Part shown: positions 10,861 to 50,010 of the stretch, piece by piece | Layout: every line of letters starts with the position of its first letter | Numbering within the stretch: position 1 is the first letter of the stretch | Position numbers and translations under genes: made by a program | Assembly (NCBI GenBank): GCA_951406725.2 | Contig: OX597826.1 | Location: 46,376,001-46,440,000, forward strand | Reading direction: 5' to 3' | Length of the DNA: 64,000 nt | Origin: Octopus vulgaris | Lineage: Eukaryota | Notes under the pieces: generated by a model | What the model saw: only the letters and a program-made list of their open reading frames with translations | Told to the model about the DNA's origin: nothing | Databases searched by the model: none

Positions 10861-11594
10861 AATATATATGTGTATATATATATATTCTGCCTTCTCTGAA
10901 TAGTGAAGATTGATAGCAAACGAACTAAAATTCACATTGAAGGTGCAGGAACTGCAAACTGTGCTTTGAGTTGCAGCTTTCTTATATGTCAAAGATATTC
11001 CTTAGCTTCTTCATAAAGAAAGATCCAAAAATCAACAACTAACCCTGGAATGGAAAATATCAACTAAAACCTTTGAGGGCAGTACTCCAGCATGACCACA
11101 GTGTAATGAACTGGTAAATGGTTTTAAAACAATGAAAACCTAAAATAAACACTTCTAGAAGATGAGGAGATAACATGGAGTAGCCAGCTATCAATCACCC
11201 AGATAATTTTATACTGCTTTCTCTCTATCTTATGCAGTGGTTCTCAACGAATTGTAACTCAACACTTCCTATTACTGAATGGCATTTTATAAACACACCC
11301 CCTACCATGTTTCACAATAATAATTATAACAATAATAAAAAAAAAAAATCACAGACAGAAGCTAATTTGCACATAGTTTTATTGTCAGTCATGTTTCTGC
11401 TCTCTGATAATACAATGTCCAATGCACATTCTTCTCTCAACAAAGATATTTTAAAAATATAAATTCCGTACTAGGTTTGACCTTAATATTTTACTTGTTT
11501 CAGTCATTGGACTGCAGCCATGCTGGGGTAAAGGTTTTAATCGAACTTGAGATACTCATCCTGCCTTGGTTTTTGATGTCCTTTTCTTCTCATA

Positions 11595-11628
<34 letters not shown>

Positions 11629-11629
11629 T

Positions 11630-11832
11630 GTCTTTATGCCCATGTTTGTCTCACCATTTCACAACTGGTGTTATTGTGTTTACATCCCTGTAACTTAGTG
11701 GTTCAGCAAAAGAGACCGATAGAATAAGTACTAGGCTTAAGAAATAAGTCTTAGAGTAAATTTGTTTGACTAAAACCCTTCAAAGTGGTGCTCCAGCATG
11801 GTTGCAGTCAAAATGACTGAAACCAGTAAAAT
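11630..11832 (+). mobile_element. SINE family A, 3' half
   Basis: GAGACCGATAGAATAAGTACTAGGC...GCTCCAGCATGG...TGACTGAAAC. Confidence 0.8.
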
Positions 11833-11910
11833 AGAAAAAAAAAAAGAAATGAAAAGAACAACTTTTATCTCATTGAAGTTAAATATATATTGTAATATAA
11901 TATAATATAA

Positions 11911-12327
11911 TGGGGCTACAAACTACAGTAGCATCCACCCTTAGGGGTTAGCCATATTCAAATGGCAAATATACGACACGATGTGTTGCCGCTACTGTTT
12001 ATAACTCGCTCTGAGATTTATCATTGTTTGATTTCACTTTTTCAATATCAGTGTCAATCGATACTGGAAAAAATATATGTATTTGTGAGGGGATCTGACT
12101 TCTCGTCGACAACTATGATTGTCACACGCCGATGATAGGTCAATACCTTGAAACTCGAGTCCATGTGTATCATAAGTTGAAGACGGGAAGGATGACTTCC
12201 TTTCACAAATACTGATAGGTCACAGAAAGTGTGTCTATAGCCAGATGGAGGAGGTGTCTTCCTGGGGCTACAAACTACAGTAGCATCCACCCTTAGGGGT
12301 TAGCCATATTCAAATGGCAAATATACG
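11911..12327 (+). mobile_element. Retrozyme-like or Penelope pseudo-LTR-like element: 352-nt unit plus exact 65-nt terminal direct repeat
   Basis: 11911-11975 is identical to 12263-12327. Internal hammerhead motif; flanked by (TATAA)n-like sequence. Confidence 0.7.
12123..12167 (+). ncRNA. Type I hammerhead ribozyme motif (variant core)
   Basis: CACACG-CCGATGA-T-AGGT/CAAT/ACCT-T-GAAA-CTCGAG-TC^-CATGTG; palindromic stem III ACTCGAGT; stem I extends further. Confidence 0.75.
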
Positions 12328-12379
12328 TCATAACATAATATAATTATAGTCTAATTAGCATTCCACAATTTATGATGAG

Positions 12380-12640
12380 CATTCCAGTTGATCTCATCAA
12401 TGGAACAGCCTGCTCATGACAATAACGAGCACAGTTTGACCAGGGCTGGGCACTCCACAAACACACATACCCCTAATGTAGTACTCAGGGAAATTCAGCA
12501 TAGCACAGAATGTAGAATGCAATAAAGTTGACCCTTAAAGCTACAGGTACAACTTACTTTTGCCAGCTGGATGAACTGGAGCAACGTGAACCAATCTCAC
12601 AATCATGAGCCAGATACATTAACCACTAAGCCATGCATCG
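12380..12640 (-). mobile_element. SINE family B-related, diverged
   Basis: Shares ATCAATGGAACAGCCTGCTC...ACAGGTACAAC with 6722-7080 and 50590-50875. Confidence 0.7.
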
Positions 12641-20049: not shown

Positions 20050-20890
20050 AATTATGGCACTGGTTACAAAAATGTAATCTGAAACAGAGGCCTTGATGTG
20101 TAGTACTCATCAACAACAATTAAGAACTAACATCAAACACAAAATTAGACCAATCAGTAGGATCAGACAAATGTAGAATGTGTGGTGAAACTTGGGAGAC
20201 AGTGTAGCATGTTTTAAGAGAAGGTATGACAATGTCAGCAGAATGGTCCGCTGGGAACTATGTAACAAGTTTGGATTAGAAAGAGTGAGAAAACAGTATG
20301 AGCAGGAGCAAAAGGTGTGATAGAAAATATGAGTTAAGATCTTTTGGGATTTCATGATCCAGTATGATTAAAATCAAACATTGGAAACTCAATATTGTAC
20401 AGATAGACGCGGAAGAAAAGTCATGCCTGATCATAGACATCTGGGTTCAGTCCCACTATGTGGCACCTTGGGCAAGTCTCTTCTACTATAGCCCCGTCTA
20501 TACATAGACATCACTTGCTCAGGTGACAGAAGAATTGTCAAAGAAAAGAGAGAAAATCTAATGCGATACAAAGCTCTGAGGAGAGAAATAGAAAAGCTGA
20601 TGTCAACAAAAAGAGTGTGTAATGTTCCAATAATTGGTTGCACCAAAGTTCAGTGGGCAAAGGAATTTGTTGGAAATGACAGGAAAAAAGATGAAAATAA
20701 AGCATATCTGGAAAACAGCATCCCTTGGCAGTACAAAGAGTATCTGCAAAGTTCTCAAGACTTGAAAAGAAGGGATCACCTTAGTTCACAAGAAGTGAGC
20801 AGTTGGTACATTAATGACACCTCCAGAAAGAAGCTGAGTATGCTAGACATGATAATGAGGATGATGATGATGATAATAATCATAATGATA
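20050..20890 (+). mobile_element. R4/Dong-like (restriction-like endonuclease) LINE 3' relic
   Basis: Disrupted translation WHWLQK.NLK..TEALM, CRMCGETWETV*H, RRYDNVSRMVRWELC, KIFWDFMIQ, CLIIDI..., VPIIG; ends in (ATG/ATA)n. Confidence 0.8.
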
Positions 20891-21049
20891 ATCCTTTTTG
20901 TTATAGGTGTGAGCCTGAAATTTTGTGGAAGGGCACTGGTTGATTACATCCACCCCAGTGCCCAGATAAAGGTGGATTGATCATTACCAGCTCCAAGAGG
21001 AAACAGAGTAACTGGTGATGGAGGTGGGACAGAGGGTGGAGTGTGTCTG

Positions 21050-36078: not shown

Positions 36079-36575
36079 CAGGGTGTCCCAAAATGATGTA
36101 CTCACTCATTGATAGATGATGTATGGGCTTACCTCAATGCAACAAATCCAAACAAATGGATTGGGAAGAGAGGTAGCATTGAATTTCCTGCACGTTCCCC
36201 AGACTTTACGCCAATAGATTTTTTTTTTTTATGGGGACATCTCAAAGATAAGGTTAACGCTGCAAAACCAGTGACAAGTGATGATTTGAAAAATGAAATT
36301 CGAATAGAATGTCTTGCAATTCCAAATGAAATGTTTGGCAATGTTGTCAAATCCATTGTTGGACGTTATCAACTTTGTTTTTGGAAACTGAAGGAAGGCA
36401 GTTTGAACATTTACGAACACGCAGGGATGAGAGAGAACATTAAATAATTCTAAATGACAATAAATAATCGTTTCTACAACAATTAATTTTCCTGAATTTA
36501 ATTTAACTTTTTAGGATTGTATGTATATCAATAAACCTCTACTTGAACACAAAATGCATGAGTACTGGGAACCTG
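36079..36575 (+). mobile_element. Internally deleted Tc1/mariner element with transposase C-terminal relic (DDxD type, maT/rosa-like)
   Basis: ORF 36109-36447 contains KWIGKRGSIEFPARSPDFTPIDFFFLWGHLKDKV; left TIR TA-CAGGGTGTCCCA; decayed right end TGGGAACCTG-TA. Confidence 0.88.
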
Positions 36576-49689: not shown

Positions 49690-50010
49690 CACCTGTGCCG
49701 GTGGCACGTAAAAAGCACCATCCGAACGTGGCCGATGCCAGCGCCGCCTTGACTGGCTTCTGTGCCGGTGGCACGTAAAAGGCACCAACCGTTCGTGGCC
49801 GATGCCAGCCTCCCCTGGCACCTGTGCCGGTGGCACGTAAAAGGCACCCACTACACTCACGGAGTGGTTGGTGTCAGGAAGGGCATCCAGCTGTAGAAAC
49901 TCTGCCAGATCAGACAGGAGCCTGGTGCAGCCTCCTGGCTTCCCAGACCTCGGTCGAACCATCCAACCCATGCTAGCATGGAAAACGGACGTTAAACGAT
50001 GATGATGATG
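49690..50010 (+). mobile_element. RTE LINE 3' UTR fragment, young, three tandem units
   Basis: TGTGCCGGTGGCACGTAAAA three times; (ATG)n tail. Confidence 0.88.

Follow-up and report, generated by a model that had tools for sequence, protein, structure and literature searches.

A hammerhead-bearing insertion in the Octopus vulgaris genome is probably a truncated copy of a non-LTR retrozyme mobilised by Penelope-like enzymes

A 64,000-nucleotide stretch of Octopus vulgaris DNA (contig OX597826.1, positions 46,376,001 to 46,440,000, forward strand; below, the window) contains a short insertion that starts to repeat itself after 352 nt and carries a hammerhead-like motif. What kind of element is this, which enzymes inserted it, and from which RNA template was it copied? 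An earlier note, made from the letters alone, proposed a retrozyme-like unit and considered a Penelope pseudo-LTR origin equally possible. Our best explanation, with a probability of roughly 0.7 and judged from genome sequence, is that the insertion derives from a dispersed animal non-LTR retrozyme, is truncated at its 5' end and was likely pasted in by the reverse transcriptase (RT) and GIY-YIG endonuclease of a Penelope-like element (PLE), which probably copied round a one-unit RNA circle.

The exact 65-nt terminal redundancy reported for this insertion (11911-11975 identical to 12263-12327, spacing 352 nt) is present and extends to 68 nt with one mismatch, 11976 A versus 12328 T. The parts of the insertion are collected in Table 1, where unit positions u1-u352 are numbered from 11911. 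No frame longer than 81 aa, stop to stop, overlaps the insertion, in agreement with the absence of a convincing ORF noted before; the ORF check found no RT + GIY-YIG ORF in the unit, which is without autonomous PLE coding. The flanks read as TAATA/TATAA-like, as described earlier, and a 10-nt ATAATATAAT repeat is common to the left and right flanks. This repeat is too simple to be called a target duplication, and no empty-site joint for the window locus was found among the joints listed.

Table 1. Parts of the window insertion and its immediate flanks.
Feature	Position in window	Strand	Remarks
Left target flank, AT-rich, microsatellite-like	11881..11910	.	read from sequence
Whole insertion, 1.19 units, one-armed	11911..12330	+	5'-truncated at unit position u1; 3' end at u68
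Full 352-nt unit, u1-u352	11911..12262	+	41% G+C, ORF-free; nearest genomic copies 93-98% identical
Conserved domain, second half, u1-u60	11911..11970	+	hairpins 11937-48 and 11951-66 (latter with compensatory change)
43-nt "tail" between family 3' ends u72 (short) and u115 (long)	11983..12025	+	merely an internal stretch in the window copy
Rod 5' arm, extending stem I	12079..12119	+	pairs with 12169-12212; compensatory changes across subfamilies
Type I hammerhead motif	12123..12167	+	stem I 12123-12128/12162-12167; core CCGAUGA 12129-12135 (U4C); stem II 12137-12140/12145-12148
Rare base A12163	12163..12163	+	G in 41/46 family segments; breaks stem I pair 2; overlooked in the first reading
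Rod 3' arm	12169..12212	+	covariation
Conserved domain, first half, u280-u352	12190..12262	+	hairpins 12219-35 and 12247-62; helix 12238-42 with u4-8
Start of next unit, u1-u68	12263..12330	+	in short 3' end class (u58-77, mode u72), putative reverse-transcription start S
Right flank, AT-rich	12331..12349	.	read from sequence

Other repeats share the window. Very high-copy short repeats adjoin the element (11507-11812 and 12362-12630), their summed depth in large sequencing runs being far above that of the unit, and are probably common SINE or MITE families. A frame with a 'PARSPDFTPIDFFLWG'-like motif at 36097-36447 (+) resembles a Tc1/mariner transposase fragment. By eye, the frame at 20492-20980 (+) is like the C-terminal part of a non-LTR retrotransposon protein, and a G+C-rich tandem repeat with a 67-nt period occupies 49690-49848 (2.5 copies).

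The type I hammerhead described in the earlier note is readable in the sequence, with GAAA at 12150-12153, the palindromic stem III ACUCGAGU at 12153-12160 and a predicted cut after C12161. Its two acknowledged blemishes are also real, namely U4C and a U-U apposition (U12136 opposite U12149) at the base of stem II. The Rfam Hammerhead_1 model has the same boundaries, 12123-12167, but scores only 13.3 bits (E 1.5) against a gathering threshold of 34, and a scan of 2.5 kb around the element reported no hammerhead at E up to 10. Rfam found no minus-strand hammerhead on the window copy; a single hammerhead is seen, on one strand. Viroids replicate from RNA to RNA, and hammerhead viroids carry ribozymes in both polarities. 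The rare base A12163 likely weakens the ribozyme of the window copy further, as judged by modelling: for the two core-side stem I pairs, predicted pairing is 0.62 and 0.80 in a sister copy but 0.02 and 0.00 here. Having a single hammerhead that combines U4C with a private mismatch in stem I, the window copy is likely a dead end, an inactive fossil probably unable to release unit-length RNA.

The rod pairings 12110-19/12169-79, 12099-107/12182-90 and 12079-88/12203-12, as well as 11925-32/11991-98, are readable and are present in the circular minimum-free-energy structure, in which 64% of the unit is predicted to be paired. Circular folding reaches -116.0 kcal/mol versus -81.9 +/- 5.9 for shuffles (z -5.8, 0/200 as low); the minus strand gives the same z, so this value cannot tell the strand. 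The proposed hairpin CGACAC/GTGTTG depends on the rare A11976, where the family has T in 71/74. In a cleaved monomer, the modelled rod would keep both ends together.

The unit is not alone in this 2.8-Gb assembly, which is rich in TA repeats. A DNA search returned at least 92 matches on many contigs (40 scored of 2,515 candidates), and the exact sequence of a 32-nt core motif recurs 1,844 times (control 0). Hammerhead patterns gave 215 matches when window-like, 436 with the canonical CUGA core (a set that partly overlaps the former) and 435 for a further, youngest subfamily of 353 nt, each with a control of 0. Tandem copies are represented by 197 hammerhead-to-hammerhead pairs one unit apart (control 2). 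Across the family the unit is 352-362 nt long, 41% G+C and non-coding, with whole-unit identity falling to about 72%, and remoter families with 357-373-nt units are also present. Two distant relatives are a 362-nt unit with the same short and long ends (L233:950-2355) and one of about 373 nt with a decayed appearance (L294:5300-6001). The unit is also found in three large sequencing runs bearing three organism labels.

Subfamilies differ in the hammerhead core. Older copies are mostly CUGA, whereas the subfamily of the window copy is U4C (32/39 near segments), and CCGA is found in 69/100 of the window-like hammerhead matches listed. U4C reduces hammerhead activity yet permitted viroid infectivity in the case described in PMC3088659. 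In the youngest subfamily the core is canonical and stem II is closed by a G-C pair; its hammerhead aligns over the full length of Rfam RF00163 (Hammerhead_1) at 32.2 bits (E 5.9e-6), slightly below the gathering threshold of 34. This 353-nt subfamily (L229, L195-L240) is very young, with 435 exact copies of the ribozyme and multimers that reach six units. Tandem neighbours number 26 per 100 listed matches in the canonical-core set versus 4 per 100 in the mostly U4C set, an excess that a difference in age may explain. One array of about nine units lies outside any TA tract (L091:1900-5050) and has variants common to non-adjacent units, as after unequal crossing-over; at L298:1-6266, a locally duplicated AT-rich satellite block holds a retrozyme copy in each half.

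An alignment of 28 copies across subfamilies suggests that the fold has been maintained. Paired cells amount to 93.5%, versus 35-46% in slid controls, and 16/80 pairs are altered on both sides (79 such cells versus 31.5 in shuffles, 0/500), a result to be read with the caveat that kinship can beat a shuffle without structure and that the structure was taken from one alignment row. The compensatory changes lie in stems I and II, the rod and three hairpins, and those in the hammerhead and rod persist across 25% divergence. RNAalifold on alignment A2 gave a different, weaker fold that retains stem II and loses stem I and the rod. The most conserved stretch of the unit is u1-65, and the most conserved domain, u280-u60, is a candidate PLE protein binding site on sequence grounds; an alternative fold of this domain (u280-284/u22-26, u300-308/u13-20) fits as well as that of the first reading. 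The retrozyme family reading is thus sustained by many dispersed and tandem copies, a covarying hammerhead and no link to an ORF.

The enzymes responsible have left their marks in the way that copies end. We compared 96 insertions at 94 loci collected by similarity and motif searches, after 19 duplicate loci were dropped. Their 5' ends are scattered, whereas 139/152 outer 3' ends fall into two windows about 43 nt apart, u58-77 (74 ends, mode u72) and u108-126 (65 ends, mode u115). Two-armed insertions, with the arms head to head and both 3' ends outward, make up 56/96, and 43 of these 56 have one short and one long end. A TA tract adjoins 55/96 insertions versus 2.9% background. Among 135 insertions examined, target duplications of 8-15 nt were found in 9 of the 35 that lie outside microsatellites, all nine being two-armed (e.g., L131), as compared with 8/1,190 for mismatched flanks; half of the two-armed insertions outside microsatellites (9/18) are without one. 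Copies are dispersed without LTR structure, and the duplications, when present, exceed 4 bp. The arms of one insertion agree at 907/937 diagnostic cells, with 6/60 loci differing at two or more. At four loci (L022, L027, L179 and L189) the arms of a single insertion differ at subfamily-diagnostic sites, from either two RNA templates or later recombination.

These features are known from PLEs. Described marks of PLE insertion include truncation, partial tandems, an inverted copy, a 30-40-bp tail at one end and a bias for microsatellites (PMC8557442), and for a Poseidon PLE in vitro both strands of AT-rich DNA are reported to be cut, with two internal RT starts that bound the tail (PMC11167929). 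A retrozyme identity and a Penelope connection are thus compatible, since PLE insertion marks are found on the copies, and from its sequence the unit is best understood as a non-autonomous passenger that PLE enzymes move. The 65-nt redundancy in the window is a start at the short site plus truncation 68 nt past one turn.

The same observations bear on the plainest alternative, a satellite or a LINE-mobilised SINE with a hammerhead-like string by chance, which we regard as barely credible. Tandem arrays do exist, and the window copy alone has its meagre Rfam score; the family, however, has neither a poly(A) nor a simple-repeat tail of its own, and a tRNA-like head was looked for and not found. 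Two internal 3' ends, overlapping inverted arms and a covarying ribozyme spread over many chromosomes speak against it as well. This reading is largely refuted by the 3' ends, the covariation, the target duplications and the Rfam score.

If PLE enzymes move the unit, is it simply part of a PLE? Intact PLE frames were sought among the GIY-YIG groups found, a sample that leaves out Naiad and Poseidon types. A 781-aa family with RT and GIY-YIG domains has 16 intact frames among 148 GIY-YIG matches, 0.5-1.5% apart, and a C-x4-C-x2-C linker, as read from sequence, which is described as a Neptune/Nematis feature (PMC8557442). A second family (L088 type), a relative of the first, has its own minimal hammerhead, unlike that of the unit. 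The third group has frames of 980-1,090 aa (L278-L297) and a long 3' UTR; a simple descriptor detected no hammerhead in this group. All three families have short and long ends and TA targets. Their tails measure 38 nt (781-aa family), 32 nt (second family) and about 119 nt (third group), the last far exceeding the 30-40 nt described for PLEs, versus 43-48 nt in the unit. By age and tail length the 781-aa family is the best candidate partner. Loci L082-L085, of this most active family, have only a degenerate hammerhead-like string, in the 3' UTR about 800 nt after the stop, at the place of the minimal hammerhead in L088, and the PLE minimal hammerheads at L088, L092, L153 and L154 carry U4C.

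No sequence link between the unit and these PLEs emerged. In 24/25 comparisons with PLE 3' regions the score was within that of shuffles, and the one slightly above (34 versus 31) involves a CTT-repeat tract; comparison with nine PLE terminal 150-mers was not significant (best 69 of 300). Short motifs that by eye seemed common to the unit and the 781-aa family were dropped, as this terminal comparison was not significant. A profile search of 99 PLE loci for the unit gave seven matches, of which the four viewed are separate insertions, and 13/193 unit-bearing loci (duplicates included) have a nearby PLE protein match. Among five such neighbours viewed, two are parted by TA tracts, one unit lies inside an ORF with a target duplication and one lies 1.4 kb upstream of an ORF; the fifth (L237), with the unit 265 nt after a PLE ORF and no TA tract between, is ambiguous. 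Same-strand copies 2.5, 5.7 and 3.25 kb apart were considered as a pseudo-LTR/ORF/pseudo-LTR arrangement and rejected, there being no PLE protein match between them. Two loose contig ends were likewise discarded as partner sequence, one having 0 matches and the other being unique flank.

The unit is therefore not an ordinary pseudo-LTR of a sampled PLE, and the statement that a Penelope pseudo-LTR origin is equally possible finds no support among those elements. That the unit is a detached pseudo-LTR of some autonomous PLE, and its copies truncated insertions of that PLE, now seems very unlikely. Every insertion mark is of PLE type, Naiad- and Poseidon-type PLEs are outside the deliberate sample, L237 has the adjacency that such an origin would leave, and in Xenopus 24/57 retrozyme families match known repeats, nearly all of them PLE termini (bioRxiv 10.64898/2026.07.22.740005). 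Yet upstream of the hammerhead the copies run into more unit rather than into an ORF, PLE proteins are near few unit loci and four of the five viewed are separate insertions, and the sampled PLEs carry a different, minimal hammerhead of their own. The 6-bp stem I, 4-bp stem II and palindromic stem III of the unit are of the canonical retrozyme type. A shared ancestry of unit and PLE termini long ago is possible.

The second question is the template. The earlier note had derived a circle from the greater-than-unit-length copy, an argument that is weak for the window copy; a one-unit template is better supported at other loci. A fixed 3' start with random truncation could give the 65-nt redundancy, so that redundancy alone is no proof of a circle, and since tandem genomic sources exist, a 1.19-unit copy could also stem from a linear multimer. 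Of 63 arms selected only for the core motif, 29 extend beyond the cleavage site, 33 end before it and a single one ends at it; with 29 read-throughs versus one stop, a simple linear monomer produced by cleavage was not the template.

The youngest subfamily offers longer arms. Its sample comprises 24 insertions picked as tandem pairs (L197 being left out as the mirror of L195), with dispersed arms of up to 6.0 units and the same two 3' ends in 34/37 arms. Lineage alleles are present in all covering repeats 31 times and mosaic twice (31/33). Six locus-private substitutions occur in every repeat, one (L226) even extending to both arms, and L230 has a private deletion in all four covering repeats, again in both arms; 79 private substitutions are confined to some repeats, "private" meaning among the 24 sampled loci only. 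Units differ by 0.60% within loci and by 1.36% between loci. Crossings of the cleavage site are exact in 74/76 and free of indels in all, a count that is biased on the upstream side because the choice of young loci required a perfect 12-nt motif immediately 5' of the cut. On sequence grounds this pattern would be the expected trace of copying round one monomer, the model proposed for retrozymes (PMC7229834, PMC7761336). Homogeneous tandem sources, post-insertion expansion or a nicked circle could produce the same pattern.

In the principal competing model the same PLE machinery would copy either uncleaved linear multimers transcribed from tandem loci or a nicked monomer, with an exact jump at the nick; no covalent circle would be required, and the hammerhead would be dispensable or regulatory. 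In vitro, uncleaved RNA is the main substrate of one PLE and hammerhead mutants had no effect on its insertion (PMC11167929), and hammerhead-free non-autonomous elements of Chlamys also make head-to-tail multimers (PMC8557442). Tandem loci exist in octopus (the 197 pairs and the nine-unit array), and U4C subfamilies have spread. A linear multimer should, however, pass on mosaics, whereas variants within insertions are all-or-none (31 versus 2) and private changes reach both arms in L226 and L230. Also against it are the compensatory changes kept in hammerhead and rod over 25% divergence and the 26 versus 4 tandem neighbours, the latter with the reservation about age. We consider this alternative unlikely, while giving it some weight. 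Sequencing runs add little: some of the unit's words are present in 14 runs whose RNA nature is a guess, and contigs of four guessed-RNA runs cover all 30 bins and contain the 12262-to-11911 joint, which is also present in tandem DNA. Depth in those four runs is uneven, as in the three large runs, and some pieces extend into flanks.

The preferred reading, a retrozyme copied round a one-unit circle by a PLE, would entail the following steps. Loci with at least two same-strand hammerheads would be transcribed and the RNA self-cleaved to unit length, with stem I and the rod holding the ends until they are ligated. The PLE protein would bind the conserved u280-u60 domain and make a staggered double-strand cut in AT-rich DNA, the two nicks lying about 11-15 nt apart. 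Each DNA 3' end would then prime cDNA synthesis at an internal site of the RNA, u72 for one end and u115 for its counterpart. Synthesis would continue across the ligated cleavage site, making as many as six turns before ending at random, after which the two arms would join head to head. The window copy would be a one-armed product of a short-site start that stopped 68 nt past one turn, and its single, doubly impaired hammerhead would likely give no monomer. As U4C subfamilies have spread, full ribozyme activity may be unnecessary. A bolder version, which we hold tentatively and at slightly less than even odds, is a retrozyme lineage without sequence debt to its helper, that is, a viroid-like RNA circle parasitising a dimeric Penelope enzyme through structure alone. 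If so, the insertions record a staggered double cut, two fixed internal cDNA starts and rolling reverse transcription of up to six turns.

The value of the locus lies in the family, the window copy itself being a likely fossil. Both the mobiliser of animal retrozymes and the circle as template are proposals in the surveyed literature, and the octopus family adds insertion-level evidence on both. The geometry of PLE integration (two arms, two starts, an 11-15-nt stagger) is visible here on a minimal substrate, and a small structured RNA inserted as multimers at TA repeats by a PLE enzyme would make a handy model substrate. The family also provides components for direct tests: the 353-nt subfamily, whose ribozyme is canonical and whose loci differ by about 1.4%, and PLE ORFs of equal age. 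With this young subfamily and intact PLE genes in one genome, the retrozyme cycle could be rebuilt in the tube. In the literature searched (main texts, few subscription journals), we found no description of retrozymes from cephalopods, nor of tail signatures in any retrozyme.

The octopus unit combines features of several known systems. Endonuclease-bearing (EN+) PLEs (Neptune/Nematis-type in octopus; the Poseidon PAc, PMC11167929; Craig et al., 2021, PMC8557442) are likewise truncated at the 5' end, partly tandem and accompanied by an inverted 5' copy; they have a 30-40-nt tail on just one end, insert at AT-rich or (TA)n sites and carry a hammerhead upstream of the RT start. In contrast to these, the octopus unit has no ORF, forms head-to-tail series of as many as six units in young insertions and has a canonical rather than a minimal hammerhead (definitions in PMC4209133). 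Non-autonomous Chlamys elements such as MRC1 are likewise non-coding, multicopy head to tail and PLE-mobilised, but as described (PMC8557442) their 3' end is similar to that of the autonomous partner, and they are without a canonical hammerhead, unlike the octopus unit.

The closest counterparts are the animal non-LTR retrozymes of coral, Mytilus (350-390 bp) and axolotl (Rtz_353) (Cervera and de la Pena, 2020, PMC7229834). Shared with the retrozymes described there are a 150-450-nt non-coding unit of less than 50% G+C, a type I hammerhead with a weak palindromic stem III, tandem copies, a self-paired fold and target duplications longer than 4 bp, and the U-U apposition at the stem II base of the window copy is also seen in HHR_Amex2. 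Circles and cleavage were demonstrated in that work, whereas the octopus family is known from genome sequence and predicted fold; U4C in some of its subfamilies also sets it apart from the animal non-LTR retrozymes described. PLEs were proposed as mobilisers from co-occurrence only (PMC7229834, PMC7761336), while in octopus two fixed 3' ends and two arms indicate the mobiliser. Frog retrozymes (Li, Clavereau & Pollet, 2026, bioRxiv 10.64898/2026.07.22.740005), reported from a set of 35 genomes that is mollusc-free, resemble the octopus family in their co-occurrence with PLEs, their monomers, dimers and multimers and the proposed use of PLE machinery. Their PLE link is homology to pseudo-LTRs, whereas in octopus it is insertion anatomy, with no homology to the sampled PLEs. 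We conclude that the octopus family is a well-supported member of the animal non-LTR retrozymes, with good genomic evidence for mobilisation by PLEs.
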